From assembly GCA_020137815.1 (NCBI GenBank), contig CM035356.1, positions 1,240,001-1,304,000 on the forward strand: DNA of 64,000 bases. Reading direction: 5' to 3'. The notes below the pieces were generated by a model. That model was not told where the DNA came from. It was given only the letters and a program-made list of their open reading frames with translations, and did not search any database. Source of the stretch: Hormiphora californensis (taxonomy: Eukaryota; Animalia; Ctenophora). Positions within the stretch are counted from its first letter, which is position 1. Each line of letters begins with the position of its first letter. Below, piece by piece: positions 1,507 through 24,000 of the stretch. A program made the translations under genes and the position numbers.

Positions 1507-4500
1507 TAAGGCCATTTGCCAAAGAGTTTATTGGGTCTCGTGGCTGTCGTCTGTTCACAATTGTGAGTAATGGACTGATGGCCTAACATGTATTGTTTGA
1601 TGGCATATATAATTTCACTCTACCCGAGAGATTTATCTTCAATCTCTATTTTCTCCCCTAACGAAGCTGTCAGTAAAACTTCGAGGAGAGAAATATAAAT
1701 CGTGTTTAAGCAATATGTCAAATATATAGGAGCTTATAATGAGGCCGGCCTCATCTCCTTGAAGAGAGGGATTGCTCCTCAAAAAGCACATTAACTTAAT
1801 AACTAGTTTTTATCCGTTTTCAATTCCTAGTGGTTTTAATAAAATAGCTTACTTATAATTGCTACTTTAATAGCTCTTCTGCTAGGCTATGCTTGGTGTA
1901 CTTAGATTGCAAAACCTCCACCAACTGGTTATGCTTAACAAGAATAACTGCATTATGTTTCATAATGCTATGTTTCCCCGCCAACCTTTATTTTGATAAC
2001 CATCTAATGTGAAGGCGGGACAGACATTTCCGATCATTTATGAATCACTCAAACCGTATACAGTATAGAACAAATCTTTGTGTTTTAGTAAAATTAAATT
2101 GAGCGGCTCACATCTCCTGAAAACGTGCCATTGAAGTATTTGATGAAGGAGCAACACCGTTGTCCCTCGCAACTAATTGGGTTACGTCACGGGACAAAAA
2201 AGCGTGACACTTCACTAGTATGTAAAATTGTCGAATTCTAAACCCCTATGCCTTTTTACAAAAGGCATCCGGGTGAATACCTTCGGCATTCACCGGGCGG
2301 GGAAAAATATTTATATATTTCTGCAGCGGTTTAGAACGGAATAATTTTCCTCAAATAATTTATTCTCTCCCCCATGTAGCCAATAGGTCATGAGAAGAGG
2401 CGATCTGATCGCCGAACCAAATGTCAGACCAATCCACAGATCCCGATAATGGTACGTCCCCCACCCTCCCCCATTATAAACACATTGAACCCTTGAACCT
2501 TTTTACCAGTAACACTTTATCTAGCCATGACTTGTACTTTTAACCCATAAAATATGCCGGTAAGTTTGTGCTCTCTTGCATGCTTTTCTATAATTCCTTC
2601 GTGATTATCTTGACACACACCCAATCACATAATAAACATATTTCTTTCTGTTGTGATTATTATGATGCTCCTTTTCTCTCTCATCATGCATAATTTGTAG
2701 TTCAAATGAAGGCTGCAAAGCTGCAAGTGACAAATTAATCCTTTGTGTGTGAAGCAATTTGACCTCGTTCAATAATATATTGAGAATATCTTCGTGTCTA
2801 ATGAATAGCTTCAAAACCGTTGTGTATAGATCTTGCCAGTGAACTGTTCTCTCCTGCACTATTATACACCTTCTGTAACCACCCTAATCTAATCTAATCC
2901 TTGTACCCCAGGAACGGATCCAATTTTAATTACAGCAGTTGTCTTTGCGGGTTGCTCTTTGGTCATCATCGTAGGTTGGCCATGTGCTGGAAATCAGCGC
3001 TGTCCCCCCCAAAAAAAACACACGATAAAACAGTAAAGTACATGATAATTATAATTTTTGAGATGTTTATGAGTTACGACGGGGTAAGGGGTTACGACTG
3101 AAGCTGACAATACCCCCGTAATAGAGAGCTCTAGAACAGTCTCTATAGAGATTAGAGGCATTACTTTTATGAAAGACAGTTACATGATCCACTCTCTTGT
3201 GATGCCTTTTAACATCTATCCCGATTCCCGCATAACGTCATTTTTCAATCGCAAATTTAACCTCTCTTTATGAACTTTTTAAATTCCCTGATAATAGCTG
3301 TCATCTTTTTTAAATGGAAGCAATAAACCAATCAAACCAGGGTCACGAACAAATATGAAGTGTTACGCACAATTAATATGTTTCGTGCGCTTTGAAACTG
3401 GATTATAATTTATCGTGTATTAATTATCTGTGAGGAGTTAAAAAGGGAGATGAATGACAGGTCCGCACTCGGTGTGTCTTACTATCAGTTATCGCCATGT
3501 AAGGAGCTTTAAGTGAGCCTGACATTGATGAGACTGTCATGTGCCTTGATCCCTGATTTAGTTCAGTTCAGTTCAAGAATTTGTGAAAACACAGGATACA
3601 TTAAAATAATAAGCCTCCTAAAAACACACGGTCAGCTCAGCGAACATAAAATCACACAAGAATGTTACGAGCACCACTCCAATATTGAGTTGCTGTTGGC
3701 TTGAGCAGGGTAACCGTGACAGGGGGTGTGTCAGGAAAAGTGGAGAGAAAACTACCCAACGAGATTTGAACTGGTGAAGAGTTGAAGCCTCTTTTACAGT
3801 TCGTGGAAGAATATTCCACAACCTAGACTAGTACCGCAAATGACTGTTCATACAATGAAAGGTTAGATCGTTGGGCTTCATATGAATAACGCGGGACGAT
3901 AGCTCTTGGGCAGAGCGGTGCGTATCAGCGAAGGTCATAGCAGTATGTTAGGTATCTCGTTGTTATACACTTTCCAAACAAGGATGGCAGTGTACCTTTC
4001 CCGACGGCGTTGAAGTGACAAAAGTCCCAAAGTTGAAGACGTTGCCAGTAATCCAACCCCTTGAGACCAGCAATCTTGCGAGTGTAGGATCGCTGGATCT
4101 CCTCAAAACGACTGATATCCCCGATTTTAGTAGGTGACCACAGTGTGCAGCAGTAGCTCATGGGGACGCACTAGTGACTTGTAAAGAGTCATCATGGTGC
4201 GGCGAGTTCTGGATCTGAAGGCACTTGTGTCCATCCAGCAACCCGACTAGCCGTGGAGACTACACGAGATATTTGGGCCGACCATTGCCCATCACTCGAG
4301 AGTACAACACCTAAATCACGCACAGTGTCGAAGGTCGATGAACTCCATCAGAGAGTTGATAGGAATAGTTCTCAGCACTGAACGGTAGTTCTCTGAGAGA
4401 ATTGGTTTGATTCAGCGTATAGTTCATGACCTCGAACTTGGACTGGTGCAAGACATGTTTTGTAGCTTCCGCCCCGGTTATCACACTGTATAGATCCTTT

Positions 4501-7500
4501 GTAGGTTCAGTTTGTCAACCATAGTCCGGTAGCAGAGAATATTTTGGTGTCATCAGCGAACGACAGTGAAGAACCGTGTTGATTACGGATTCCAAGTCAA
4601 TTACGTAGATCAAAAATAGTAGTGGGCCGAGCACAGTACCTTGTGGGACACCGCTTCTGACCTCTGCAAGGAAGATGATGTGCCGTCGACTAAAACCGTT
4701 TGTTTCCGGTCTAGCAAGAAGCTGCGGATCCATTCAAGGAGTTTGCCCTTAACTCCATCTTCTGCAGTTTTTCGAGTAGCACACCGATGTCAACTTTATC
4801 AAACGCCTTCTCGAAGTCCAAGTAGATTACATCCACTTCAAGAAGGTCGTTGAGATTGTTCAGAATATTGTCAATGTGACGAGTGAGTTGGGATAAGCAG
4901 CTCTCTTGCTTCTAAACCCATGCTGAGACTCGTTGAACAAATTCTTGATTCAAAGTATGACACCATTTGAGATCTTACAACCCTTTCAAAGTCTGGCAAT
5001 GTGGTGGTTAGTGAGATCGGGCGGTAGTTTTCAGCTTTCATTTTAGGACCCTTTTGTAAAGTGGCGCAATGTACTGAAGTTTCAGACAGGGTGGTACAAT
5101 ACCAGAATCAAACGATTTGGCCCATAAGATGGATAGGGGGTAGGACAGCGATGATCGGCAGTCACGCAGAATTCGGCAGGTATATCTCCTGGGGGGCGGC
5201 TGATAAGGATTGAGTTCATACAGTGCCTTTTCAATATCGGTGGCGGAGAATACGATGTCTGAGAGGCTGCATGTAGAAGGAGTAATGTTGTTGCAGCTGC
5301 TGAAGGGGAGTTTGAAGGAGGTGTGTGTGTGTGTGTTGTTTTGCACCGCCCGTCATTCCTCCCACTTTACTGCCCCACAATGGTCGGCAGACAACCTATA
5401 TTAATATCACTCTTCGCCACGTCCCCCACACGTAGGGATAATGTGTGATGGTTCGGTTTGGGTCCTGGTATTTTGTTGAGCAAGCTCAACATTTCCCTCG
5501 AACCTTCGCCGGCATCACAGAAGAGCCTTTGATACAGTGAATCTAATATTAGACTGACATACCTATGTTGTCAGGACAATGGATGGAATTTACCTGTCTC
5601 ACAGACTGGTCTTTGGTTACTACTGCTCCAGGGAGCTGTAGAGGTAGGTGGGTTGGGATATGACAATACCGTGGGTTCACCATCTAATCGGTGACGGCTG
5701 AAATATCTTATCACACCTCAGGTCTTTGGTCAAAACCGCTAGCAGTACTTATCAGCATGCAACCTGGGGGTCCGGACAGTAATTTCTTAGGAACACAGAT
5801 AAGCATGAAAAACGCTTATGTAAAATTTGGTGAGCATTTGGCAAATTATCAGCTCCCAGGGGTTGCAATTGCGGGGTAATTACTTGCCAACGGCGGAGGT
5901 GGCCCTTTGTTATGGCCCAGAACTGCCCTACCTTAATATTGGGACCCTTATGATGTGGTTTTGTGGAATTCCCCGGCCGTAGCGATTCTTGCCTGTGTAT
6001 GTACTTCTTTCAGATCGGGATGGTTGGGGATGGTTTATTCGAATAGGTTACTTCTGTATACTAATTTGGAGAATTTGTGCAGATCCAGTGTGTTGCTGGG
6101 AGTGAGAATGTTGTTGATGATATTGGTAGTCGAGTTTGTATCGTAGCTCATCTAGGTCTGGGCAGTGGAGGAGCTGTGGTTCCGCATTCTTTGACTTTGC
6201 AAAGTCACAGAGGTTGGATATGGATTTGTTTGTTTGAGATGGCGCTGTTTAGGTTGTTTTGTCGGAGATTGCCCGGGTTAGACTTCTGAGGTATGGTTTT
6301 TGAGAGAAGTTTAGTTTGGGGTGGTCTCTGATGAGTTGTTAGAGCAGCGTGGTTGTCCAGTTGGAGTAATGGCCTTCTCGATTTGTTTTATGAATTTCTT
6401 TGTGCAGTCTTCTTTCATTAGCGATATGAGTTGGGTTTTGGTTAGGCCGAAGGGGTTTGCGGTGTTAAGACTGTCTTTGGTTGCTCTTTTGGCGATTAGG
6501 TCCGCGGCCTCGTTACCGGGGATGTTGGAGTGGGCTTTAACCTTTGAATTGTTACATTGTTGTAGATTTGTAGTTTATGGAGGTTGTTGATTGTGGAAAT
6601 TAACTGGTTCGGTTTGTCTGTCCCTTCACAAGATTAGTTAGGTGGGTTTGGAATCTGTATGTATGGTAATGTTCATGTACTTGGTGCATAACTCAGTAAA
6701 TTGATGGCTACCATATTTATTGCTTGAAGTTCAGCTTGGTTGATTGTGTTGATTGGGGAAAGAGTTTGGATTATAATTTTGTACGAGGTATCGTACAATA
6801 TTATGGCTCCGGCACCGTGACTGGGCGGGTTGGTGTCCATTTTTGAACCGTCAGTATATATTTCGATATTTCCGTTTGTGAATATTTGGTTTTTCGGAGA
6901 AATGGATAAGTTGGGTGGAAGTAATGTCCAGGTCTGAACCCGGGTTTAGGTGGCGCAAGTAGTTTTCTATGTCTTTGGAGGGGGTGAGTTGGCTCTTGTA
7001 CCGTGGTTTGGGTCTGACCACCAGTTGTTGTTGCTAATGAGGTGGAGTAGTTGTTAATTCTTTCTTTGTTTAAGAGAAAGACAAGAGGCTTACACCGGCG
7101 AGCTTAGTCAGTGTTGCTGACTGAGTATGTTTATGGCCGCCTGTGATCTTACGGTTGACGGCGTTTTGGACCGTTTGCATCTTTTGGAGTGCGGTTTGGT
7201 TATTCAGGATCGTGTGACCCCAGATACCGCCTGCGTATAATAGATTTGGATAATATCTGGTTGTGGACGTGTCTGGCTTGGTCCAGGGTTAGCCCCCAAT
7301 GTTTGTGATGAGGAAGTTTAAGGGGCGGGCAGCTGCCTTGGTTTTAGTAATTTTTTGTTGTGTGCGTTTTGTAATTTAGATTTTGTCTAGGTCGACGCTA
7401 GATAGGGGGCAAATGGTTTTATGGGGAGTTGTTCGTTGCCCAGTTGGATGTGTTTAGAGAGATTTTTTGGTGTGGTGTTGTGGAAAGCAACTAAGTTAGT

Positions 7501-8263
7501 TTTTGTGGGTACTTAGTTTTAGGCCTTGTTTGTGTACCCATTCTGTTAAGATTTTCATTTGTTCGACAATTATGTCGTGCATGGTGACGTTAAGGTCGGG
7601 GCCAGTAATAATTATAACAATGTCATCCGCGTATAGTATGATAAGGTTGAGGTCGCAGCAGGTGAATTGGATTGTGTTCATGCATAAGTTCCAGAGGAGT
7701 GGAGATAGGATACCCCCTTGGGGGGTGCCTCTGTGGATTTGTTGCTCTAGCCATTCCCCACCTAATTCAAGGATTACAGTTCTATTTCTGAGGGAGTGAC
7801 TGATCCATTCGAATAGTTCAGTTGGTAATTTTATCTTATCTAAACCTCGCTCTAGCGCAGTGAAAGATACTCTGTCGAAGGCGCCTTCGACGTCTACGAA
7901 AGCCCCGAGGCGTATTGTTTGTCAGCGAGCGCGTTTCTATCCTGCTAGTAAGATCGTGATCGCGGGATATGGTTGATTTACCTTACGGAAACCATGTTGG
8001 TTGTCGATTAGTTTCATGTTAATTTTGAGGTCGTCGGGAGAAAGATTAGTAGACCTCTTTCCATGAGTTTGAGAATGTTTGACGACAACAGATGATGCGG
8101 TAACTCTTGGGGTAGTGTAATTGACTTACCTGGTTTTGGATGATGACGCCCTTGCTCTTCAGCCAAGTTCCGGTTTCAACCTGCAGGTGAGGGTGTTAGC
8201 ATGAAGAGGCGTAATTTATGGGAGATATGTCCCATGTATCGATTAACATGCCGTACTGATCTT
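1507..8263. repeat. Degraded tandem copy of 8325-15152 (unique flank, CR1-like RT segment, and 3' half of the inner LINE)
   Basis: Both copies start TAAGGCCATTTGCCAAA and run colinearly to CCG(T)TACTGATCTT. This copy carries many 1-2 nt indels that break every ORF, and a ~60-nt unrelated junction lies at 8264-8324. Confidence 0.92.
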
Positions 8264-9715
8264 CTCACTACGGCCAGGGGGATGTGAGTGGGTGATACAA
8301 AGCCCCGGTTCCTTTGCAGTCAGTTAAGGCCATTTGCCAAAAGAGGTATTGGTCTCGTGGCGTCGTCTGTTCACAATTGTGAGTAATGGACTGATGCCCT
8401 AACATGTATTGTTTGATGGCATATATAATTTCACTCTACCCGAGAGATTTATCTTCAATCTCTATTTTCTCCCCTAACGAAGCTGTCAGTAAAACTTCGA
8501 GGAGAGAAAATATAATCGTGTTTAAGCAATATGTCAAATATTAGGAGCTTATAATGAGGCCGGCCTCATCTCCTTGAAGAGAGGGATTCTCCTCAAAAAG
8601 CACATTAACTTAATAACTAGTTTTTATCCGTTTTCAATTCCTATGGTTTAATAAAATAGCTTACTTATAATTGCTACTTTAATAGCTCTTCTGCTAGGCT
8701 ATGCTTGGTGTACTTAGATTGCAAAACCTCCACCAACTGGTTAGGCTTAACAAGAATACTGCATTATGTTTCATAATGCTATGTTTCCCCGCCAACCTTT
8801 ATTTTGATAACCATCTAATGTGAAGGCGGGACAGACATTCCGATCATTTATGAATCACTCAAACCGTATACAGTATAGAACAAATCTTTGTGTTTTAGTA
8901 AAATTAAATTGAGCGGCTCACATCTCCTGAAAACGTGCCATTGAAGTATTTGATGAAGGAGCAACACCGTTGTCCCTCGCAACTAATTGGGTTACGTCAC
9001 GGGACAAAAAAGCGTGACACTTCACTAGTATGTAAAATTGTCGAATTCTAAACCCCTATCCTTTTACAAAAGGCATCCGGGTGAATACCTTCGGCATTCA
9101 CCGGGCGGGAAAAATATTTATATATTTCTGCAGCGGTTTAGAACGGAATAATTTTCCTCAAATAATTTATTCTCTCCCCCATGTAGCCAATAGGTCATGA
9201 GAGAGGCGATCTGATCGCCGAACCAAATGTCAGACCAATCCACAGATCCCGATAATGGTACGTCCCCCACCCTCCCCATTATAAACACATTGAACCCTTG
9301 AACCTTTTTACCAGTAACACTTTATCTAGCCATGACTTGTACTTTTAACCATAAAATATGCCGGTAAGTTTGTGCTCTCTTGCATGCTTTTCTATAATTC
9401 CTTCGTGATTATCTTGACACACACCCAATCACATAATAAACATATTTCTTTCTGTTGTGATTATTATGATGCTCCTTTTCTCTCTCATCATGCATAATTT
9501 GTAGTTCAAATGAAGGCTGCAAAGCTGCAAGTGACAAATTAATCCTTTGTGTGTGAAGCAATTTGACCTCGTTCAATAAATATTGAGAAATATCTTCGTG
9601 TCTAATGATATAGCTCTCAAACCGTTGTGTATAGTATCTTCCAGTGAACTTTCTCTCCCTGCATTTATACACCTCTGTAACCCCCCTAATCTATCTAATC
9701 CCTTGTTACCCTCAG

Positions 9716-9827
9716 GAACGGATCCAATTATAATTACAGCAGTTGTCTTTGCGGTTGTTCTCTTTGTCATCATCGTACTGTTGGCCATGTGCTGGAAATT
9801 CAGGAGCAAAAAACACCACGATAAAAA
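9716..9827 (+). CDS. Transmembrane exon of a single-pass membrane protein (degraded copy near 2912-3033)
   Basis: Acceptor CCCTCAG| and donor |GTAAGT flank (G)TDPIIITAVVFAVVLFVIIVLLAMCWKFRSKKHHDK, a hydrophobic helix followed by basic stop-transfer residues. Confidence 0.65.
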
Positions 9828-10356
9828 GTAAGTCATTGAATAATTATATTTTGAGATGTTTTATGAGTTACGACGGGGTAAGGGGTTACGACTGACAGCT
9901 GACAATACCCCCGTAATAGAGAGCTCTAGAACAGTCTCTATAGAGATTAGAGGCATTACTTTTATGAAATGACAGTTACATGATCCACTCTCTTTGTGAT
10001 GCCTTTTAACATCTATCCCGATTCCCGCATAACGTCATTTTTCAATCGCAAATTTAACCTCTCTTTATGAACTTTTTAAATTCCCTGATAATAGCTGTCA
10101 TCTTTTTTAAATGGAAGCAATAAACCAATCAAACCAGGGTCACGAACAAATATGAAGTGTTACGCACAATTAATATGTTTCGTGCGCTTTGAAACTGGAT
10201 TATAATTTATCGTGTATTAATTATCTGTGAGGAGTTAAAAAGGGAGATGAATGACAGGTCCGCACTCGGTGTGTCTTACTATCAGTTATCGCCATGTAAG
10301 GAGCTTTAAGTGAGCCTGACATTGATGAGACTGTCATGTGCCTTGATCCCTGATTT

Positions 10357-12157
10357 AGTTCAGTTCAGTTCAAGAATTTGTGAAAACACAGGATACATTA
10401 AAATAATAAGCCTCCTAAACACACGGTCAGCTCAGCGAACATAAAATCACACAAGAATGTTACGAGCACCACTCCAATATTGAGTTGCTGTTGGCTTGAG
10501 CAGGGTAACCGCTGACAGGGGGTGTGTCAGGAAAAGTGGAGAGAAAACTACCCAACTGAGATTTGAACTGGTGAAGAGTTGAAGCCTCTTTTACAGTTCG
10601 TGAAGAATATTCCACAACCTAGCACCTAGTACCGCAAATGACTGTTCATACAATGAAAGGTTAGATCGTTGGGCTTCATATGAATAACGCGGGACGATAG
10701 CTCTTGGGCCAGAGCGGTGCGTATCAGCGAAGGTCATAGCAGTACTGTTAGGTATCTCGTTGTTATACACTTTCCAAACAAGGATGGCAGTGTACCTTTC
10801 CGACGGCGTTGAAGTGACAAAAGTCCCAAAGTCTGAAGCGTTGCCAGTAATCCAACCCCTTGAGACCAGCAATCTTGCGAGTGTAGGATCGTCCCCGCCC
10901 TGACGCTGGATCTCCTCAACACGACTGATATCCCCGATTTTAGTAGGTGACCACAGTGTGCAGCAGTAGTCTAGATGGGGACGCACTAGTGACTTGTAAA
11001 GAGTCATCATGGTGCGGCGAGTTCTGGATCTGAAGGCACTTAGTGTCCATCCAGCAACCCGACTAGCCGTGGAGACTACACGAGATATTTGGGCCGACCA
11101 TTGCCCATCACTCGAGAGTACAACACCTAAATCACGCACAGTGTCTGAAGGGTCGATGAACCTTCCATCAGAGAGTTGATAGGAATAGTTCTCAGCACTG
11201 AACGGTAGTTCTCTGAGAGAATTGGTTTGATTCAGCGTATAGTTCATGACCTCGAACTTGGACTGGTGCAAGGACATGTTGTTAGCTTCCGCCCAGGTTA
11301 TCACACTGTATAGATCCTTTTGTAGGTTCAGTTTGTCAACCATAGTCCGGATAGCAGAGAATATTTTGGTGTCATCAGCGAACGACAGTGAAGAACCGTG
11401 TTTGATTACGGATTCCAAGTCAATTACGTAGATCAAAAATAGTAGTGGGCCGAGCACAGTACCTTGTGGGACACCGCTTCTGACCTCTGCAAAGGAAGAT
11501 GATGTGCCGTCGACTAAAACCGTTTGTTTCCGGTCTAGCAAGAAGCTGCGGATCCATTCAAGGAGTTTGCCCTTAACTCCATATCTCTGCAGTTTTTCGA
11601 GTAGCACACCGATGTCAACTTTATCAAACGCCTTCTCGAAGTCCAAGTAGATTACATCCACTTCAAGAAGGTCGTTGAGATTGTTCAGAATATTGTCAAT
11701 GTGACGAGTGAGTTGGGATAAGCAGCTCCTCTTGCTTCTAAACCCATGCTGAGACTCGTTGAACAAATTCTCTGATTCAAAGTATGACACCATTTGAGAT
11801 CTTACAACCCTTTCAAAAGTCTTGGCAATGTGGCTGGTTAGTGAGATCGGGCGGTAGTTTTCAGCTTTCATTTTAGGACCCTTTTTGTAAAGTGGCGCAA
11901 TGTACTGAAGTTTCAGACAGGGTGGTACAATACCAGAATCAAACGATTTGGCCCATAAGATGGATAGGGGGTAGGACAGCGATGATCGGCAGTCACGCAG
12001 AATTCTGGCAGGTATATCTCCTGGTGGGCCGGCTGAATAAGGATTGAGTTCATACAGTGCCTTTTCAATATCGGTGGCGGAGAATACGATGTCTGAGAGG
12101 CTGCATGTAGAAGGAGTAATGTTGTCTGCAGCTGCTGAAGGGGAGTTTGAAGGAGTG
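10357..12157 (-). mobile_element. 3' part of a CR1/L2-group LINE (reverse transcriptase and 3' end)
   Basis: ORF 10591-11871 has NYRPISLTS, YLDFEKAFDKV, GVPQGTVLGPLLF and FADDTK. A (TGAAC)3 tail lies at 10357-10371. A 14-nt insertion near 10892, absent from the duplicate copy, shifts the frame. Confidence 0.93.
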
Positions 12158-12884
12158 TGTGTGTGTGTGTGTGTTTTGCACCGCCCGTCATTCCTCCCAC
12201 TTTACTGCCCCACAATGGTCGGCAGACAACCTATATTAATATCACTCTTCGCCACCGTCCCCCACACGTAGGGATAATGTTGATGTTGTTCCGGTTTGGG
12301 TCCTGGTATTTTGTTGAGCAAGCTCAACATTTCCCTCGAACCTTCGCCGGCATCACAAGAAGAGCCTTTGATACAGTGAATCTAATATTAGACTGACATA
12401 CCTATGTTGTCAGGACAATGGATGGAATTTACCTGTCTCACAGACTGGTCTTTGGTTACTACTGCTCCAGGGAGCTGTAGAGGTAGGTGGGTTGCCGGAT
12501 ATGACAATACCGTGGGTTCACCATCTAATCGGTGACGGCTGAAATATCTTATCACACCTCAGGTCTTTGGTCAAAACCGCTAGCAGTACTTATCAGCATG
12601 CAACCTGGGGGTCCGGACAGCTAATTTCTTAGCAAGCACAGATAAGCATGAAAAACGCTTATGTAAACTTCTGGTGAGCATTTGGCAAATTATCAGCTCC
12701 CAGGGGTTGCACTATTGCGGGGTAATTACTTGCCATACGGCGGAGGTGGCCCTTTGTTATGGCCCAGAACTGCCCTACCTTAATATTGGGACCCTTATGA
12801 TGTGGTTTTGTGGAATTCCCCGGCCGTAGCGATTCTTGCCCTGTGGTATGCTACTTCTTTCAGATCGGGATGGTTGGGGATGGT

Positions 12885-15800
12885 TTATTCGAATAGGTTA
12901 CTTCTGTATACTAATTTGGAGAATTTGTGCAGATCCAGTGTGTTGCTGGGAGTGAGAATGTTGTTGATGATATCTTGGTAGTCGAGTTTGTATCGTAGCT
13001 CATCTAGGTCTGGGCAGTGGAGGAGCTTGTGTTCCGCATTCTCTTTGACTTTGCATAAGTCACAGAGGTTGGATATGGATTTGTCTTTGTTTGAGATGGC
13101 GCTGTTTAGGTTGTTTTGTCCGGAGATTGCCAGGGTTAGACTTCTGAGGTATGGTTTTTGAGAGAAGTTTAGTTTGGGGTGGTCTCTGATGAGTTTGTAG
13201 AGCAGCGTGGTTGTCCAGTTGGAGTAATTGGCCTTCTCGATTTGTTTTATGAATTTCTTTGTGCAGTCTTCTTTCATTAGCGATATGAGTTGGGTTTTGG
13301 TTAGGCCGAAGGGGTTTGCGGTGTTAAGACTGTCTTTGGTTGCTCTTTTGGCGATTAGGTCCGCGGCCTCGTTACCGGGGATGTTGGAGTGGGCTTTAAC
13401 CTTCTGAATTGTTACATTGTTGTAGATTTGTAGTTTATGGAGGTTGTTGATTGTGGAAATTAACTGGTTCGAGTTTGTCTGTCCCTTCACAAGATTAGTT
13501 AGGGTGGTTTTGGAATCTGTATGTATGGTAATGTTCATGTACTTGGTGTCATAACTCAGTAAATTGATGGCTACCATATTTATTGCTTGAAGTTCAGCTT
13601 GGTTGATTGTGTTGATTGGGGAAAGAGTTTGGATTATAATTTTGTACGAGGTATCGTACAATATTATGGCTCCGGCACCCGTGACTGGGCCCGGCTTGGT
13701 GTCCATTTTTGAACCGTCAGTATATATTTCGATATTTCCGTTTGTGACTATATTTTGGTTTTCGGAGAAATGGATAAGTTGGGTGGAAGTAATGTCCAGT
13801 TCTGAACCCGGGTTTAGGTGGCGCAAGTAGTTTTCTATGTCTTTGGAGTGGGTGAGTCTGGCTCTTGTACCGTGGTTTGGGTCTGACCACCAGTTGTTGT
13901 TGCTAATGAGGTGGATGTAGTTGTTAATTCTTTCTTTGTTTAAGAGAAAGACAAGAGGCTCTACACCGGCGAGCTTAGTCAGTGTTGCTGACTGAGTATG
14001 TTTATGGCCGCCTGTGATCTTACGGTTGACGGCGTTTTGGACCGTTTGTATCTTTTGGAGTGCGGTTTGGTTATTCAGGATCGTGTGTCCCCAGATACCG
14101 CCTGCGTATAGTAGATTTGGCATAATTATCTGGTTGTGGACGTGTCTGGCTTGGTCCAGGGTTAGCCCCCAATGTTTGTTGATGAGGAAGTTTAAGGGGC
14201 GGGCAGCTGCCTTGGTTTTAGTAATTTTTTTGTTGATGTGCGTTTTGTAATTTAGATTTTTGTCTAGGTCGACGCCTAGATAGGGGGCAAATGGTTTTAT
14301 GGGGAGTTGTTCGTTGCCCAGTTGGATGTTGTTTAGAGAGATTTTTTGGTGTGTGTTGTGGAAAGCAACTATGTTAGTTTTTGTGGTACTTAGTTTTAGG
14401 CCTTGTTTGTGTACCCATTCTGTCAAGATTTTCATTTGTTCGACAATTATGTCGTGCATGGTGACGTTAAGGTCGGGGCCAGTAATAATTATAACAATGT
14501 CATCCGCGTATAATATGATAAGGTTGAGGTCGCAGCAGGTGAATTGGATTGTGTTCATGCATAAGTTCCAGAGGAGTGGAGATAGGATACCCCCTTGGGG
14601 GGTGCCTCTGTGGATTTGTTGCTCTAGCATTTCTCCGCCTAATTCGAGGATTACAGTTCTATTTCTGAGGGAGTGACTGATCCATTCGAATATTTCAGTT
14701 GGTAATTTTATCTTATCTAAACCTCGCTCTAGCGCAGTGAAAGATACTCTGTCGAAGGCGCCTTCGACGTCTACGAAAGCCCCTAGGGCGTATTGTTTGT
14801 CAGCGAGCGCGTTTTCTATTCTGCTAGTAAGATCGTGAATCGCGGATATGGTTGATTTACCTTTACGGAAACCATGTTGGTTGTCGATTAGTTTCATGTT
14901 AATTTTGAGGTCGTCGTGGAGAAAGATTAGTAGACCTCTTTCCATGAGTTTGAGAATGTTTGACGACAAACAGATGATGCGGTAACTCTTGGGGTTAGCG
15001 TAATTTGACTTACCTGGTTTTGGGATGATGATGCCCTTGCTCTTCAGCCATAGTTCCGGTTTCAACCTGCAGGTTAGGGTGTTAAGCATGAATAGGCGTA
15101 ACTTATGGGAGATTATGTCCCATGTATCGATTAACATGCCGTTACTGATCTTATCTAGGCCAGGGGCTTTGGCCCTTTTTACCTGTTTTATGGCTTTGTT
15201 GAGGTGGCTGATTTTCAGTTGTTCGGTAACCGGCATATTGATTTTATTCTTCTGTTTCCATGTCTGGTTAGATTCATCGGGATTCTCTGGGAAGTGAGTG
15301 TTAGCGATGGTTTTGAGAATGGTTAGTGGGTCGTCCGAAGATGCTTGGGGGCCCGTGTCGATTTTTGTGAGGTTTATACGGGGTTTTGAGTGGTTTTTCA
15401 TGCACTGTGAGACTTCCTTGATTGAAGTAAGTTTTGAGATTTTTTCTTTCCAGCGTTGTTCTTCACAGTTTTTGATTTCCTCACCAAGGGCTTTTTTGAG
15501 TCTGCTAATTTCTGATCGGGTTTCCCCCGACTTGCTCTTTTGTTTCTTTAGAGGTTTTAGTTCTTGTTTGATAGCTGTCGCAGTCGGGGACCAGGGCGAC
15601 GATTTTAGGTGTTTTACTACTGTGGTCGGGGTGGCTTCGTTGAAGGAGGAGGTTAGTGCTTCACATATAGACTTGTATTGACTGTTCATGGCCTTTTTGC
15701 TCGGGTTGTTGTGGATGTTTAACTTACTGAATTTTTGAGTTACTAGTTCCCTAAAGAGGGGCATGTCTGTATTTTTGGGTAATTTAACCTTCTCTGTTTC

Positions 15801-16952
15801 TATGTTGCCAAGATTAATTTTGATGTGTATTCTTTTGTGGTCTGATAGGGTCGTGTCAGTGAGGGACCACTTGTGTACTCTGTCATGCGCTTTTTCATTA
15901 GTTATGGTCAGGTCGATGAGAGATTGGCCATTTTTACTCACGAAGGTGGGTTCGTAAGTTGTATTTTCGATATAAAGCCGTTCTTCATCGAGTATACTTT
16001 CCAGAGTGATACCTCTGACGTTGGTGATTCTATCTCCCCATGATTTGTTACGGGCGTTTGAGTCGGTACATATTATCCAGGCTGTGTTCTTTTCTTGGAC
16101 ATAGCTGCTAGTTTGTAGGAGTTTGGTCTCTGTGTCGGGATTGATATGTTTTTGCCCTTTTGGGGCAGAGAGATAGGCCGAGGTGATTACTATAGATTTG
16201 TTATTGCCAAATTTGTATCTGATGCTGACTATTTCGTCGTTTGAAAGGGTTGCTAGAAGGTGTGCGTTTTTGGCCATGTTTATAGGGACAATAATACAGG
16301 CACGGGGGGTTACGTGGTCCTTGGTAAAACAACGGGAATATTTTGGGACGAATTGGACTCTGCCGTTCTTACCTGTATAAGGCTCTTGGAGGGCTAGTAT
16401 TTTGTTGTTACCGGTCTTGGACATGATTTCCTTTGTTGCTCCAATTTCAGTATGTAGGTTGTGCTGTATTATCTCTGTGAGGAAATTAGAGGGGTTAACC
16501 TTCTTGTTTTCCTTTGGGTGTTTGTGGGGGGCGTTGACAACTTTGGGGGCCGGTATTATGGCTGGGTTGTTGGCAGGGGAGTTAACATTATCTGTGGGAC
16601 CATTTGTAACTGAGTTACTGGCGGGGGTGCTAACGAAATTGTTATTTGGAGCTGGGTTACCGGCGGGGGTACTGTGGTTAGCGGGGGTGCCGTGTGTAAC
16701 TGGGTTACTGGCGGGGGTGCTATAGTTAGCGGGGGTGTCATGTGTAACTGGGTTACTGACGGGGGTGCTATAGTTAGCGGGGGTGCCATGTGTAACTGGG
16801 TTACTGGCGGGGGTGCTATAGTTAGCGGGGGTGCCATGTGTAACTAGGTTACTGGCGGGGGTGCTATTGCTAGCGGGGGTGACTTGTGTGGTGTAGTCAG
16901 GGTTAGGATGGCGTTTGTAGCGTTTCCGGTGTCTTCCAGCTGGCGGGGACAT
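12885..16952 (-). CDS. ORF2 of the inner LINE: APE endonuclease, RT, RNase H and C-terminal CCHC knuckle (1355 aa, uninterrupted)
   Basis: APE motifs LQEPY, DSNA, IDLT, SDH. RT motifs DVEGAFD, GTPQGGILSP, YADD. RNase H motifs YTDGSK, AEL, TDS, VKAHSNIPGNEAAD. C-terminal CDLC…EH…C. Confidence 0.96.
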   Translation of the reverse strand: MSPPAGRHRKRYKRHPNPDYTTQVTPASNSTPASNLVTHGTPANYSTPASNPVTHGTPANYSTPVSNPVTHDTPANYSTPASNPVTHGTPANHSTPAGNPAPNNNFVSTPASNSVTNGPTDNVNSPANNPAIIPAPKVVNAPHKHPKENKKVNPSNFLTEIIQHNLHTEIGATKEIMSKTGNNKILALQEPYTGKNGRVQFVPKYSRCFTKDHVTPRACIIVPINMAKNAHLLATLSNDEIVSIRYKFGNNKSIVITSAYLSAPKGQKHINPDTETKLLQTSSYVQEKNTAWIICTDSNARNKSWGDRITNVRGITLESILDEERLYIENTTYEPTFVSKNGQSLIDLTITNEKAHDRVHKWSLTDTTLSDHKRIHIKINLGNIETEKVKLPKNTDMPLFRELVTQKFSKLNIHNNPSKKAMNSQYKSICEALTSSFNEATPTTVVKHLKSSPWSPTATAIKQELKPLKKQKSKSGETRSEISRLKKALGEEIKNCEEQRWKEKISKLTSIKEVSQCMKNHSKPRINLTKIDTGPQASSDDPLTILKTIANTHFPENPDESNQTWKQKNKINMPVTEQLKISHLNKAIKQVKRAKAPGLDKISNGMLIDTWDIISHKLRLFMLNTLTCRLKPELWLKSKGIIIPKPGKSNYANPKSYRIICLSSNILKLMERGLLIFLHDDLKINMKLIDNQHGFRKGKSTISAIHDLTSRIENALADKQYALGAFVDVEGAFDRVSFTALERGLDKIKLPTEIFEWISHSLRNRTVILELGGEMLEQQIHRGTPQGGILSPLLWNLCMNTIQFTCCDLNLIILYADDIVIIITGPDLNVTMHDIIVEQMKILTEWVHKQGLKLSTTKTNIVAFHNTHQKISLNNIQLGNEQLPIKPFAPYLGVDLDKNLNYKTHINKKITKTKAAARPLNFLINKHWGLTLDQARHVHNQIIMPNLLYAGGIWGHTILNNQTALQKIQTVQNAVNRKITGGHKHTQSATLTKLAGVEPLVFLLNKERINNYIHLISNNNWWSDPNHGTRARLTHSKDIENYLRHLNPGSELDITSTQLIHFSENQNIVTNGNIEIYTDGSKMDTKPGPVTGAGAIILYDTSYKIIIQTLSPINTINQAELQAINMVAINLLSYDTKYMNITIHTDSKTTLTNLVKGQTNSNQLISTINNLHKLQIYNNVTIQKVKAHSNIPGNEAADLIAKRATKDSLNTANPFGLTKTQLISLMKEDCTKKFIKQIEKANYSNWTTTLLYKLIRDHPKLNFSQKPYLRSLTLAISGQNNLNSAISNKDKSISNLCDLCKVKENAEHKLLHCPDLDELRYKLDYQDIINNILTPSNTLDLHKFSKLVYRSNLFE
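16600..16885 (-). repeat. 48-bp coding tandem repeat (TPASNPVTHGTPANYS, about 5 copies) in the ORF2 N-terminus
   Basis: Visible in both the DNA and the translation. Confidence 0.9.
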
Positions 16953-17377
16953 GGCTATAGGTTAGGAGGATTTGAGTTGATTATTTTGGGGGTGGTGTTA
17001 GCTGTGTTAAAAAGGTTACCAACTGTTGGCGAGGGGAGCAAGATTTAACAAGCAAGATTTACGATTGTGGGCGGGGGTAGATAAGAGAATCAAGAAAAAT
17101 CCCATTGCTTTGATTTAGTACAAATAGTTTAGAAGATTACGAGTATTGAAGTCATTAGCTTGTATGGTTTATCTTTCAGACTGAATGTACACAACATAGC
17201 ATGTTTTTAAAAAAAGGAAAGGTCAGCATGTGAAAAGACACGTTACAGCGGTGGTGTTAACTAAAAGCAGCTGCAGCCACACAAAAACACGCATTTCCCT
17301 TGACAAATTGTCTAGTATGTAGATGGGGGCGGTACTGGTTTTGATTGGTGGCACCCGACCTTTGTTCTACTATGAGG

Positions 17378-18303
17378 CTAGCTAGTTACTACCATAGCCG
17401 CTTCAGTCGTTTTCTTGAAGTGTTCTACTTCATATGGCTTCAGTGTGTGGAAGGCCCACAGTTTGGGCTCCAAACCCAACGGAAAAGTGGCCTTTTCCGG
17501 CAACTCGATGAAAATCTGTACCCCCAGTTTAGTGCGCTTAGGGGGCATGAGAGGGGAGCACGCTGCATTTTTACCTGCCACATGGACCTTGTTTAGTGTT
17601 AGCCCTTTTATTACAGTTTCCACAAGCTCTTTCGTGACGAGTAGGTTTGAGCTGGTGTTGGGGGGCAAAGTGACCCGCAGGTAGTCGGCGTGGTTTTCAA
17701 TTCTGTTAGAGGGGGCAATTTAGGGTGTGCTGCGGCATAAGGTTAAATGAATTAGGCGGGCTAGGGAGATAGCAGAAAATGGCGGGCTGAGCAGATGAAA
17801 TATATCTAAATATATAGTTGTATCTACTGTGTGGGGTAGGGATTGAGTTACCTTGGTATGTATTTGAGTTCACGAGGGACTCTTTCCGGGATTAGGTTTT
17901 CTTTCCCGCGTACAAATATGGCCCTGTTCGCTGGAGATCGATGCAGAGTGATGCCAAGTTCAGCGCATAATCAATGGCAACATCGCCATTTCATAGCTCT
18001 CAAAATCCTTGTTCTCAAGCTGTAGGAAATCTCTATGAAAGAGAACACCACCATCCATTTGAGCCGTCTTCCTGAAGGGTAAGGGGGTCGTGTTAGGAGA
18101 GTGTAGAGTGGTAGAGTATTTGTAAAAGTTATATACTATGGAGATTTGAGGGGGGGGGGTGTAAATGTGGTTACTGCTTACCTCTCTGTTGCCTTGGCCT
18201 TTTTTCTGGCCTGTTCTATCGGGGAGAGGGTGTCGGGGGATCTGCTACGCTTCTTCCCTCTCTTTGCTGGTTGTTTTCCCTTAGTGCTGGAGGGTTTTGC
18301 CAT
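17378..18303 (-). CDS. Putative three-exon ORF1 of the inner LINE (exons 18303-18182, 18071-17852, 17702-17378)
   Basis: Donors AG|GTAAGC and AG|GTAACT; acceptors CTAAC…CCCTTCAG| and CCCTCTAACAG|. Both introns are phase 2 and all junctions are in frame. Exon 2 is 220 nt and needs one base removed near 17965 (error or mutation). The N-terminus is Lys/Arg-rich. Confidence 0.7.
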
Positions 18304-18784
18304 GGCTAGTTGGGGGGTAAGGAATGTTAGAAGGTGTGACGTCAGGGTCTCTTTGTAGATAAGGGGGCCTGAGCGCGCGCAGGCGTGCTGCGTAAAGAGT
18401 TTGCTTTCCATGAGCTCGGGTTTTTTCTTCTCGCGCGCTACACGGGATAGGAGTATATTACATCATCGTCCTGTGGGGGAATTGTTTTTGTTATGGGTGG
18501 GGATGTAATGTGTTATCAAGGTGCTGATTTATTGGACATCAGTAGCCGTATAATGTAAGTAGACTTAGTGACTGGGGCCCAAACTAATGGGCACCGTTCA
18601 CTTAATCTAGTTTTATGTTATAGGGGGCCCCATTCCCGCTGCTCACGCAACGAGGCAGGGGAGACCCTAAGTTCATTGAGCTATTACAGTCGAGACTGGA
18701 ATAGCTCACGGTGCCATGAGTGAGGTCGGCTAGATCTCTGGCGGGTTTTTACTCCCCAAAATCGGGGCGATAGCCGGGCGTCCG

Positions 18785-18968
18785 TAGTCATTAGCCGCAC
18801 TCCCGAGGCGCTCCGGCGACGACTCGGCAAGCCGAGATCGTCCCCAGCACACCCCCGGAGCACGTTCCCAGGATGGACCGCGGGGAGGTTGACTAATCGG
18901 ACTTGCAGCGGTGTGGCACCAGAAGGAGCGAAGCTCCAACTGGCATCACACCACTACCATTCCATCCC
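18785..18968 (-). ncRNA. HDV-like self-cleaving ribozyme at the 5' end of the inner LINE
   Basis: Minus strand: P1 GGGAUGG/CCAUCCU (G1·U wobble), P2 UAGUCA/UGACUA, P3 ACC/GGU, L3 UCCCCGC, P1.1 GG, long P4 (CGUGCUCC…GGAGUGCG), and J4/2 GCUAA with the catalytic C at 18794. G1 abuts the TSD. Confidence 0.92.
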
Positions 18969-21000
18969 AGTTTGAAGGAGTGCTGAAGACAGAGGTAAAT
19001 TGTGATTGAAATAGTTCTGCCTTCATCTCGGGAACGTCCGTAAGTGACCCATCACTCAATTGTAAGGGAGGGATGCGTGACCGGGTCTTCCTCTTTCGGT
19101 TGGCGTACGACCAAAAGAATTTAGGGTTGGCTTTTAGTTTCATCAACGCTTCGTTTTCATCAAAATCGAGTCGCTGAGAAATGTGACACAAGATGGCCCA
19201 AGTAATTCTGGAAACACCAACCTCGAGCTGTGGCAAAAGGTGAGGTTTATTCTGCCGGGCTAGAGTAATCCGTTTGTTCAAACTCCGTTGTTTCACTTTC
19301 AGTTTCCTGAGAATAGGGTCCCTTCGTTTTTTACGGGCCTTCTTCATACGAGAGTGGTGGGATAAAACCTGTAAACAGTCAGGATAAAAAGCTGGACAAA
19401 ATCAGAACCGTCGCTGCTCTCGCAAATGTCGGCAAGTGCTACCCAGTCGATCGTGTCCAATTCCTTACACATTTCAGGGAAATCTGCCTCATGAAAGTCA
19501 TAAATATCAAAGTCCGTAAATTGATGGTCCAATTGACGACGAGGTTTGATTCCGAAACCAAGGGTAGAGCTGATCATATGGTGATCGGAAATACATGACT
19601 CTGATACCTCAGTTTTGAAGACATATTCGGGCCGGTTAGTGAGAATAAGGTCCAGAATATTCAAGCCCCTTGTAGGGGCATCAACAAGTTGAGTTAGGAA
19701 ATAATCGTTCACAAATTTTATGAACATCTGGGAACAAGTGTCAGATCCTCCACTGAGTGTTCCCCAGTCAATGTCCGGCATATTGAAATCACCCATAATG
19801 TAGATATCAGGACAACCCTTGTTAAGTTCACACTGATCAATGAAATGGGATAGATCATCAAAAAGTCCATTTGATGGGGAAGATGGCGCCCTGTAAACAA
19901 CACAAAAAACCGAGTGGGTCTCTTTGATGTAAACGGCAGCCGCACTATTGGAAGTGTCAGAGAATCTGAATTCGGAGGAAGGGGTCAGTTGGTTGTTAAT
20001 GTAGAGTGCACAGCCACCACCTCTCCTCCCTGCTCTATCACAAACGAATCAGGTGAAACCCTTCAATTTCCAATTGTGCATCAGAGAAATCATCACGCCA
20101 CCAAGTCTCCGTTATGCCGGTGCAAAGGATGGTTTTGACGGATTCTCCAATGAGTCCTTGATAAAAGAAAACTTCCACCGACAGTCACTAGCCGCGGAAG
20201 GCGTTACTAACTGCGGGCGTTGATGAGGAGTAATTCCGAAACCGTTCCCAGAACCCCATGGTAGTTGGTCGGGGTGTTCAGGCTCGGTTGGCCTGAGTGT
20301 GAGATGTTTGGGCCGGGGTGTGTGTTCCCTCGTCATCTCTTCCCTGAAGGACTGGAGAGATGATTCAGGGACGTCTTCACTTCTCGAAGAATCTCGTCCC
20401 TCACTGAGGCCATCAATGCCATGAGAAAATCCTCTTGTGAACGGATGTCATTGGTCGCGACACGGGGGTGGGTCTCAGTTTTAATGGTCTTCTTCTTCTT
20501 TTTCTTCTTAGGGTTTTGAGGAGCTGGAGCTGAGCGAGGGGGCTCTTTCTGCTCCACTTTCTGAGAGGCATCACTGGTTTTGTTACCAGTACTCTTCAAT
20601 GAATTACCTTAGTAGGGGGGTACTTCACTTCTCCGAGTGTTCTTTAAATGTGTGTCTTTACATTCTTTGTCGGTACAGACTCGGGAGATCTCAGAATTAT
20701 GGCAGAGAGGTGGGTGAAAATTCTGACACTTATCACCAAAGTTACACCCGAACGAGTTGCCGTTCCGTACTGACAATAACGGAGGCATTTCTGGGGATGT
20801 TCCTTGCTGCAAGGCTTACCACTAATCAACTTGTCACCATTTGGGCCATGAGGACAGTCTCTCAGTAGATAACGTTCACAAACATTGCTGAATTTGGGAA
20901 CACCTTGCTGTTTCACCTCTCCATAAAAGAAGCTCAAGATCCAATCTTTTGAATGTCACTCTCCCAACAGGAGTTCCAACAAGAATCTTCTTGACAGGGC
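18969..21000 (-). mobile_element. 5' part of the host CR1/L2-group LINE (APE endonuclease and Cys/His-rich ORF1), frameshifted; 5' end unresolved
   Basis: Fragments GITETW…RGGGCALYI, GDFNMPDIDW, LDLILTN, ISDHHMI and KANPKFFWSY. CCCH-like fingers (CERYLLRDCPHG…CSKEHP) at 20600-20900. Confidence 0.88.
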
Positions 21001-24000
21001 TTGTTCTTCTTCCTCTTTTCTTTCCGACGGCCCGCTTTGGACTGATTTTTAACTCGTTTTTTCCTCATCAGATAACACTGACTCGGATTTCAGCACTTTG
21101 GTTGCACTGAAAGTTTCAATTTTTTGTTTGTCTTGGGGCCGCAGACCCCAAAACCGGGGCCGACCCCCAATGACCCAGGGGCCAAACCATAGCCCCCGCA
21201 AACATGAGACCCCTGCTGGCAAAAAAAAAAGGAAAACGGGAGATTCACTGTTTAATGCTATCCCTTTCCGCAGCCCTCACAATCACAGGGAAAAAGAATT
21301 TCCAGTGAATGATGATTTGTCGTATGTAGTGCGGTTCTGGGTACCCTTTTTTTTATCCGCCGGAGCCGGGGATGCACCGAAAAAAAGATGCAGCGGGGTT
21401 CCAGGGGGGACAATTTTAATGTGCGGATGAGTCCAGATTTGGGTTTAAACCCCCAAAATTTGGCGGAGGCAGAAGGATTTTTGGGAGAGGATTGTGCGTT
21501 TTCAAGATTTCCAACGGAAGGGCATCCCTCATTTTTCATCAGTAGGTGTAGCCCTATTTGTCATATCTGGCTGGCTAGGGCCACAGAGGAATTCGAAAAG
21601 CAAAGGGGGGCCTCAAATTTAATTGTTTAAATAGGTTGAAAAATTTGAAATCTTTGAATATATGAAAATACTTTATTCTTAGAAATTATATGATGCTCAA
21701 AACCCCCCGAATATACAAGCAGTAAAATTGTTTTAAACCCGCCCCCTCTCTTCTTATTCAACCTCCTCTTACTCTCTCGCTTCCCTTATTTTTCCCAAGG
21801 TTATGAAGACTGAAATTAGGGTTTGAGTGATGAATTGGGGATTTGAGTGAACCCCCGCACATCCAGACATTAGTGACATTTGATACATCTAATTCAGTGT
21901 CTACTCTAAATTCTTTACTGTAACACCCGCACAAACAAACACTCAACAAAACAAACCTAGAATAAGATGACACTTTTATTTACTGTGTACCAACTAAAAG
22001 TAGTTAATAGTTAGTGGGTGGTATAAATGCACGGTTATATGATATTTAGAAATCTTAATTTTAATTTTTAGAGCTGCAAGAAATTCAAAATAACTTACCA
22101 AAAATAAAAATTTTCCCTTAAATTTCTACATATTAGAGGGAAGGGGGTAGGTGTGGTCGAGTTAAGAAATGCATTAGGGATAACTCGAAATTTTAAGGGG
22201 GTGTTTAGCGAAAAAAAGTCTACAGACCAAATTTTACAGCCCGCAAGCCACAAGAAAAGGGACACAAAAGGGCCCCCCGAACCCCCCACCCCAAGGGAAA
22301 AAAACAAAGAAACAAGAAAGAAAGGGATGTGGAGAGAAGAGAGAGGAGAAGAGGAGAAGAAAAAAGGGGAGAAGGAGGGAGGGAGAGAGAGAGAAGAGGG
22401 GGGAAAAAACCCCCCCCCTTGTCCCCCTTTTTTTCTTTTTTCTCCTCCTTCCCTTCCCCTCTATCCTTTTCCTCTCTCTCCCCCCCTCTCTTTTGAGAAA
22501 AAAAACCCTGGGAAAGGTTTTTGGTGAAGGTTGGGGTCGGAATGGGGTTAAAAGGGTTTTTTGGTTGAAGGGATTTGGAGCTGAGCAGCTTTTTTTTGTG
22601 GAAGCGGGGTGAGACATTGGAGGGAAAATTAAGAGAGTATATCTTTAGCTGATGAGCAGAGAGAGAGGAGAGGAGAAGCCCCGGGAAACCAGTGGGGAGA
22701 CGGGGCTCCGAGGGAAGGGGAAAGGGGGATTGAAAAGAGAAAAATTTTTTTCCCCCCCGGGGATTCCGAGGTTTTAAAGGATTGATTTTAAGGGCGGGAA
22801 TGGGTTAAGGATTGAGGAAATTGGCCGGCAAACCCGAAGGGGCAAACCAAAACCAAAACAAAAAGCCCCCGGCCAAAAGGAGAGGGGAAGGGGAAAGAGG
22901 GAGAGAGAGAAGAAAAGGGGAAAAAGGAGGGGGTGAGGCCGGAAAAAAAAAGAAGACCCTTTTTTTCCCCTTTACTCCACACCTCCCCCCAGAGAAAATT
23001 CCCGCCCGATCCTCTCCCTTTTCCCCCCCCCTCCCCTTCCCCGCCAACGGGGATTTTAAAAAAACATGACAAAACAAAAAAATGTTACTCACCAACGGAC
23101 GGCGGAAAAACCCAAATAGTTTTGCCAAAATGACCAAAAAACGACAGGGTAAAGATTTTTGGGAAAGTGACCCTTTTTTTCCCGGAAGGGGGGACAAAAC
23201 CCCCCCCCAAAAGGTTGTGGGGGGGGGACCTGGAAGAACCAAAAGAAGAAAGGGGCCCAAAGGACCTTTTTTCCCCCCCCCTGGGAATAAAGGTAATGGG
23301 GCAGGAAAGGTGTGATTGGGGGAAAAATAATAGGAACCAAATAAAAGTTTCCCCCACAAGGGAGGGCCCCTTTTTGTTTATTAGGGTTAGGCGGGCAGGT
23401 ATATTTCCCCCCACGATTTCCGCACCTTTTTTTTTCCCTCCCTTTTTAAAACCATATTTTTTCCCGTTTTCCCCTTTTCCCCCTTTATTTTAAGCAGGGT
23501 TCCGCCAAACACACGAAAAAATAAGCTGCTCACACAGAGTCCAAACCCATCAATACAAGGCGCAGAGACGTCAAGAAGCAGGAAAACGAGAGCTACGAGA
23601 GAGGAGGAGAAGAGAGCATAGAGACCGAGAGAGAGTGAGAGGGGGCGGTAGAAGCGCGCGAACGGAGGCGAGAGATGATATTCGTCACTCTATCAATACT
23701 GTAGAGCCTTCTCTACTTAGCCGCCTAGACTGCTCTTCGTGATAGACTAGCTTCTCGCTCTCTCTCGCTTCTACATCGCACATCGGTGTGTGATTCAAAG
23801 TTGTACAGTGCACAATACAAATAAAAGTGATTACTTCACTCTGAACGGATCGGCTGGGAAATAGCCCCTATTATAATACGCTTATCAGCGCAGTGACATA
23901 CACGACATGTGTAGAGAGATTTTCGTTAGAATAGTGACTTTTCTCATCATCACATAGGAATGTAGTACATCTGCCCCCCCCCCATGTGTGTGTGTGGGGG

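Follow-up and report, generated by a model that had tools for sequence, protein, structure and literature searches.

HDV-like ribozymes that cut at the 5' junction of a retrotransposon have been described in Drosophila R2, R4/Dong, L1Tc and RTE (PMC3774820), and they occur in baggins elements too (PMC6765202). The RNA of L1Tc is reported to be unspliced, to lack a leader and probably to be translated cap-free (PMC3383444). In drz-Agam-2-1, a P1.2 hairpin, an extended P2 and short linkers jointly accelerate cleavage, as reported by Webb et al. (PMC4908430). Penelope-like elements typically keep their introns through retrotransposition, a trait described as highly unusual (PMC8557442), and an RNase H downstream of the reverse transcriptase (RT) is a feature of the LOA clade (LOA, Bilbo, Lian, CiLOA; PMC2790886). 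On the host side, in one ctenophore species at least 56% of full-length reads were found to bear a spliced leader (PMC8527503), leader trans-splicing supplies a cap to uncapped pre-mRNA (PMC7986045) and, according to the available text of the same paper, operons had not been reported in ctenophores. Our literature search found no HDV-like retrotransposon ribozymes in ctenophores, and the R2 surveys, in their accessible parts, describe none. Nor did it find any intron-bearing or trans-spliced LINEs, Penelope-like elements being the sole relevant find of a search that ran outside Repbase, most subscription journals and supplements.

A LINE passes through an RNA stage each time it is copied, and its proteins as a rule favour the messenger that encodes them. 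Introns should therefore be lost from a LINE. The element we describe here, a LINE whose ORF1 is predicted to be split, would run against that expectation, possibly because a ribozyme at its 5' end marks the unspliced RNA as the template. It lies in the window, by which we mean the whole 64-kb stretch of Hormiphora californensis DNA that was analysed. A ribozyme at a LINE boundary is already known, and finding one here would by itself add no more than an early-branching animal lineage to the hosts of that arrangement; the novelty is the predicted intron-split ORF1 together with splice acceptors before both ORFs. The initial annotation of this DNA had read the ribozyme well, both fold and exact junction, and missed the split ORF1 and the acceptors. 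The element is a 6.8-kb endonuclease-RT-RNase H LINE inserted into another LINE, with the following outline.

18969-20048, minus strand: host LINE, endonuclease part, upstream of the insertion (ORF and domain evidence)
18969-18982, minus strand: target-site duplication, 5' copy; 12-bp core at 18969-18980, 14 bp with two tail-shared bases
12885-16952, minus strand: ORF2, open, 1355 aa, with repetitive N-terminus, AP endonuclease, reverse transcriptase and RNase H (Pfam)
12156-12884, minus strand: 3' UTR of about 727 nt, ending in the (CA)n tail
12144-12157, minus strand: target-site duplication, 3' copy, recurring after the tail
10591-12143, minus strand: host LINE, RT part; frame continues from 18969

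An ORF encoding AP endonuclease and RT, a target-site duplication, a simple-repeat 3' tail and the lack of LTRs make the element a LINE. The 14 bases before 18968 recur at 12157-12144, directly behind the (CA)n tail; two of the 14 are shared with the tail, which leaves 12 unambiguous. Once the insertion and one duplicate are removed, the reading frame of the outer LINE, which we take from its motifs to be CR1/L2-like, rejoins. In runs X4, X5 and X6, contigs from other copies of the outer LINE part from the window sequence at 18969. The loose end in X4 matches the sequence past the right duplication at 26 of 30 letters, the X6 end agrees with that sequence by eye in its final 11 letters, and the X5 end shows no clear match there. 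Contigs that cross the 5' junction were not counted as independent: they fall below our 31-letter bridging rule, and the sample behind them may be the source of this DNA. On the evidence of one insertion and one 5' junction, G18968 is the first base of the element and the first after the target duplication, so the cleavage site predicted earlier does coincide with the junction. The novelty attached to that match was overrated, since the same coincidence is reported for R2, R4, L1Tc and RTE (PMC3774820).

Two further features of the element and its surroundings deserve mention. Positions 1507-8280 and 8325-15166 form a tandem near-duplicate (96.7%) that includes the element's 3' half and 3' junction. 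We rejected 1507-8280 as an independent second copy: it has no 5' end and differs by 152 gap openings against 45 mismatches, which suggests an uncollapsed noisy assembly segment. ORF2 itself starts with about 150 low-complexity residues, including five copies of a 48-nt (16-aa) repeat at 16554-16889, and the N-terminus of its relative P0001 (51% identical) is likewise long and of low complexity.

In a quick RT tree, ORF2 falls in a 14-row subclade (SH-aLRT 95) with a Mnemiopsis cluster, nested in a 34-row clade (SH-aLRT 99) with lepidopteran elements; the tree holds 51 of 55 rows, P0034, P0036, P0046 and P0125 having been removed by a length filter, and its support values are SH-aLRT only. The RNase H lies downstream of the RT, as in LOA elements. 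The LOA label is presumed for this element; the tree groups it with unnamed insect elements, and its rows include no named LOA reference. Baggins is a member of the LOA clade. We also collected related loci, keeping 80 of at least 511 confirmed; these are distant, with long alignments no more than 33% identical to the ctenophore-side proteins. Four of five tested upstream ORFs among the related loci encode uninterrupted DUF4780 proteins above the Pfam cut-off. The 80 distant loci gave no credible HDV-like fold, only one antisense, chance-like match against 0.125 per shuffled set, and the upstream DNA of 23 related loci (44 kb, in which only 8 reach 2 kb upstream) gave no HDV-like match.

The HDV-like fold occupies the first 189 nt of the element and is made up as follows.

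18780-18968, minus strand: HDV-like ribozyme fold, 189 nt; predicted cut 5' of G18968 and predicted catalytic C18794, both by HDV-family rules
18962-18968, minus strand: P1 5' strand; partner 18870-18876, G-U first pair
18905-18957, minus strand: P1.2 hairpin within J1/2, with 4-nt and 2-nt linkers (z -6.1)
18890-18902, minus strand: P2 5' strand; 6 bp with 18785-18790 and, past a 2-nt bulge, 5 bp with 18780-18784
18868-18889, minus strand: P3, L3, P1 3' strand and P1.1 GG, by pairing check
18796-18864, minus strand: extended P4 hairpin (z -7.5), kept by both changes in the X5 copy
18791-18795, minus strand: J4/2 GCUAA with C18794, read from the sequence

HDV ribozymes share a 7-bp P1 starting from a G, a 3-bp P3, a pyrimidine-rich L3 and a C in J4/2. 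All of these are present here (the P1 from G18968-U18870, C18794 in J4/2), in a nested double pseudoknot with P1, P1.1, P2, P3 and P4 in the correct order. The consensus agrees with the text of PMC4908430. Every core element that the initial annotation had placed on the minus strand is where it said. P1 pairs 18968-18962 with 18876-18870 through a G-U first pair and then six Watson-Crick pairs; P2 pairs 18895-18890 with 18790-18785, all six Watson-Crick; P3 is ACC/GGU and L3 has 7 nt; P1.1 makes two C-G pairs, 18885-18884 with 18869-18868; and J4/2 reads GCUAA with its C at 18794. The proposal that J1/2 folds into its own hairpin was borne out (its 66 nt form a more stable structure than shuffles do, z -6.1), as was the extended P4, whose insert folds strongly against shuffles (z -7.5). 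P2 proved longer than first thought, with five extra pairs (18902-18898 with 18784-18780) after the 2-nt bulge; with this extension the fold comes to its 189 nt, and the linkers flanking the J1/2 hairpin are 4 and 2 nt.

A strict HDV descriptor has one match in the 64-kb window and none in 1820 dinucleotide shuffles (64 kb, both strands); a looser one has a single match in the window against two in the 1820 shuffles; and a third, the loosest, adds two overlapping low-complexity matches near 22598. That region, 22095-23500, is purine/pyrimidine-rich and of low complexity, and it attracts many spurious Rfam microRNA matches along with this false descriptor match. The initial annotation had called for an HDV search. 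The descriptor found this site; the curated Rfam HDV-type models had no match to it at E up to 10 or at gathering scores. The two long inserted hairpins may be the reason for the miss, and a match to an Rfam model is not a defining feature of the HDV-like class. A search of metagenome contigs for the exact 24-nt ribozyme core pattern gave no match.

Would the fold cut? When pseudoknots are left out of the model, the minimum-energy structure (-108.4) has L3 paired with the GG(G)A of P1.1; the nested native subsets score worse (-100.9 and -102.5), so misfolding is possible. The 5' flank competes weakly for P1 (-3.5 vs -9.7 kcal/mol), and despite the flank P1 forms with a probability of 0.79-0.99 when the P2 strand is held unpaired. 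We expect, with considerable confidence, that the fold self-cleaves 5' of G18968.

Copies of the element in other reads allow the sequence to be compared. Run X5, from another sample and study, gave a contig that covers 17900-18897, a span that stops short of the P1 5' strand. It has 29 differing letters, 28 of which are listed. P2, P3, L3, the P1 3' strand and J4/2 are unchanged, and the two changes in the ribozyme both keep P4, one turning an A-U pair into G-U and the other being unpaired. A 61-nt contig from X4 matches 18862-18906 with one difference, keeping the core and the P2 extension, and then runs into sequence unlike the J1/2 arm; all three runs of the X4 sample break at the same 30 bases. 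This contig likely represents a sister family with the same ribozyme core, and we infer that its one unseen change sits at P2 position 18892. In the X5 and X4 contigs no compensatory base change was seen, the P1 5' strand coming from one copy only.

Differences between the window and X5 are unevenly spread, with 5 differing sites in the first 594 covered bases and 23 in the next 404 (P 6e-6). Within the predicted exons, 12 of 16 changes fall at third positions (P 8e-4) and 11 of the 16 are synonymous where 22% would be expected (P 8e-5); alternative frames have at most one synonymous change per segment. The pattern shows coding-type (purifying) selection on the predicted exons. Predicted intron 1 differs by seven substitutions and a 2-nt indel. 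The leader at 18304-18784 is better conserved between the copies (0.6%) than the coding exons are (5-7%), as might be expected of a promoter or of an RNA element bound by protein.

Those exons belong to ORF1. The 1.8 kb between ribozyme and ORF2 holds no long ORF, yet splice signals are present there. Read with two predicted spliceosomal introns, of 110 and 149 nt, it would encode an ORF1 of 220 codons.

18306-18779, minus strand: non-coding leader, predicted outron, with branch point, pyrimidine tract and AG 2 nt before the ORF1 ATG; its role is presumed
18182-18303, minus strand: ORF1 exon 1, basic N-terminus; immediate stop codon if unspliced; 5 of 8 X5 changes synonymous
18072-18181, minus strand: predicted intron 1, 110 nt, GT-AG, CTAAC branch point
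17852-18071, minus strand: ORF1 exon 2; 4 extra bases near 17970 shift the frame in the window copy
17703-17851, minus strand: predicted intron 2, 149 nt, phase 2, GT-AG; P0317 residue 57 aligns on both sides
17378-17702, minus strand: ORF1 exon 3 to the stop codon; 62% and 70% identical to P0317 and P0316
16955-17377, minus strand: inter-ORF spacer, ending in CTAAC and AG 2 nt before the ORF2 ATG

Searching 1.84 billion representatives with exon 3 gave three matches, two of them real (P0317 and P0316); we discarded the third, P0318, as a repeat artefact. P0317 is a EukProt protein of Pleurobrachia bachei, known here from its protein sequence alone, and it aligns to exons 2 and 3 continuously across both intron 2 and the frameshift of the window copy. 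Relative to this homologue, ORF1 holds an intervening sequence. It has GT-AG ends and a branch point, and its removal restores the conserved frame. P0316 opens with unrelated residues just upstream of exon 3, as would be expected from a genomic copy sharing intron 2. Intron 1, which no homologue spans, is read from splice signals and codon bias. Within 1.9 kb there are three donors with 6 or more of the 9 consensus positions matched (18181, 17851 and 17574), and two of them are the predicted intron starts. Acceptors with a branch point end at 18524, 18306, 18072, 17730 and 16955; the scan picked 17730 and not the 17703 that P0317 requires. We consider splicing in vivo very probable for intron 2 and probable for intron 1. 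The four extra bases near 17970 are absent from the X5 copy; an assembly error was rejected as their source, a short-read contig of the same sample having no gaps there. Neither a Pfam family nor, beyond the two matches, further homologues of P0317 were found for the ORF1 protein, and its structure model (pLDDT 47) had no fold match. Its matches in the structure atlas all score below 0.9 and are mostly small ferredoxin-like domains, a lead only.

Both start codons of the element lie 2 nt downstream of a YAG with a CTAAC branch point. An acceptor with such a branch point no more than 5 nt before an ATG occurs at 5 of the 2134 ATGs in the window and at 3 of the 86 inside the element (18303, 16952 and one internal), in a test that was defined after inspection of the sequence. 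There are 11 upstream ATGs before ORF1 and six between the ORFs; simple scanning is therefore unlikely. Weak cis donors exist at 18709 and 18646 (GTGAG). We think it somewhat better than even that the acceptors before both ATGs take a spliced leader and not a cis donor. A separate strong donor, 17574, lies within ORF1 exon 3, and its in-frame join to the ORF2 acceptor at 16955 would give an optional ORF1-ORF2 fusion.

The surrounding DNA belongs to the host. Compact host genes lie in 34900-57500, among them PheRS alpha and, presumably, to judge by their motifs, eIF5B, an EF1-beta-like gene, a HEAT-repeat protein and a ClC chloride channel. The PheRS has 77% identity to a cluster that includes a protein of Mnemiopsis leidyi; among the matches listed, named animals outside the ctenophores reach 57-64%. 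Together with the Pleurobrachia origin of P0317, this points to a ctenophore host. The start codon of PheRS (within 39190-39213) has the layout of the element's two ATGs, 2 nt behind a CTAAC-branch acceptor that is likely a trans-splice site. Within this region, 43948-47709 carries 1132-nt inverted arms, 99% complementary, flanking inverted arrays of a 32-bp unit; it looks like a foldback element or an assembly palindrome.

From all this we propose how the element might work. It would be transcribed by read-through from upstream, and the ribozyme would cut itself out, leaving an RNA with a 5'-OH that starts at G18968. The fold may shield the 5' end of this cut RNA, as has been argued for R2 templates (PMC11331408). 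Cut and unspliced, the RNA would serve as the retrotransposition template, because there is a copy in which a target duplication and an exact 5' end go together with both introns. Other molecules would be spliced into ORF1 and ORF2 messengers, probably trans-spliced to a leader and so capped. Splicing at 18306 would discard the ribozyme, so only unspliced RNA could found a full-length copy; spliced RNA could not, and as a result the introns would not be lost and the proteins would have to act in trans. Taken as a whole, the chain of self-cleavage, unspliced template and spliced, probably leader-capped messengers seems to us slightly more probable than its denial. Its strictest form gives the RNA two exclusive fates: the ribozyme-headed, uncapped and unspliced RNA would be the sole template, while the spliced-leader machinery would treat the transcript as a two-gene operon, the ribozyme being lost as an outron and the proteins acting in trans. 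To that form we give a little less than an even chance. If it is true, a genuine LINE stably keeps spliceosomal introns within its coding sequence, and the open question of how uncapped, ribozyme-cut RNA is translated gains a testable answer: recapping by trans-splicing, not an IRES.

The ribozyme and the introns could be real and leader trans-splicing absent, with the acceptors joined to cis donors and the ribozyme left on a cap-less messenger. Donor 17574, which scores as high as both intron donors and is in frame with ORF2, speaks for this, as do the GTGAG donors at 18709 and 18646; HDV-like ribozymes are also reported to drive cap-independent translation (PMC6765202), which has been proposed for R2 and L1Tc. 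Yet both homologues, P0317 and P0316, read through 17574. A spliced RNA that still bore its ribozyme should yield intronless copies by cis copying, whereas both copies seen keep their introns, and the ribozyme's own ATGs (18965, 18960, 18946 and 18791) would stay upstream. We regard this account as unlikely.

Quite improbable, in our judgement, is that the intron-split ORF is a captured cellular gene or passenger whose introns persist passively through copying from nascent nuclear RNA. Such an origin would fit an ORF1 with no Pfam family, no similarity to DUF4780 (hhalign, 0.2%) and a low-confidence structure model that finds no fold match; P0317, moreover, is known from protein and not from genomic context, and ORF1 is broken in the window copy. 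However, the ORF sits in the ORF1 position on the sense strand, inside the insertion bounded by the duplication, and two samples have it joined to the ribozyme. Its N-terminus is basic, it is under purifying selection between copies, and two true homologues among 1.84 billion representatives are fewer than one would expect of an old host gene. Very improbable is a fold that is only a slow or inactive relic, with an internal promoter setting the 5' end and the structure serving stability or protein binding: an alternative fold does compete in silico, some R2 ribozymes cleave little or not in vitro (PMC3774820, PMC11331408) and the whole leader is conserved beyond the ribozyme in a promoter-like manner, but every core pair and base is canonical, the predicted cut site is the element boundary to the base, and the sister sequence keeps the core with one change while its J1/2 hairpin differs.

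Returning to the template-and-messenger scheme, how does the element stand beside those already described? With R2, R4/Dong, RTE, baggins and L1Tc/ingi it shares the nested double pseudoknot, a cut at the element's first base and presumed release from read-through RNA (PMC3774820, PMC6765202, PMC3383444). Unlike them it has a predicted intron-split ORF1, acceptors before both ORFs and a ctenophore host. Close to it in build is drz-Agam-2-1, a large HDV-like ribozyme of Anopheles, which has the same structured P1.2 in J1/2, extended P2 (11 bp here, 12 there) and short linkers (PMC4908430). The Hormiphora fold, known here from sequence alone, differs in the 2-nt bulge that breaks its P2 and in its long P4. 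In general type, drz-Agam-2-1 is an RTE-type ribozyme. With the LOA clade the element has in common an AP endonuclease, RT and RNase H in ORF2 (PMC2790886). Relatives of the lepidopteran elements in its clade carry a DUF4780 ORF1, whereas the ORF1 here is short (220 codons), split and not detectably DUF4780; hhalign against the DUF4780 ORF1 of the insect-side relatives gave a probability of 0.2%, no detectable similarity. Penelope-like elements likewise combine self-cleaving ribozymes with spliceosomal introns kept after retrotransposition (PMC8557442, PMC4209133), and they have their own GIY-YIG endonuclease, a telomerase-like RT, hammerhead ribozymes and pseudo-LTRs (PMC8557442). The Hormiphora element has neither the GIY-YIG domain nor the pseudo-LTRs: Pfam finds AP endonuclease, RT and RNase H, and unlike Penelope the element is headed by an HDV-like fold, is flanked by a target duplication and ends in a simple-repeat tail. 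Judged by its features, then, the element would resemble R2, L1Tc and baggins at its 5' end and Penelope in keeping its introns, and is itself an AP-endonuclease LINE.
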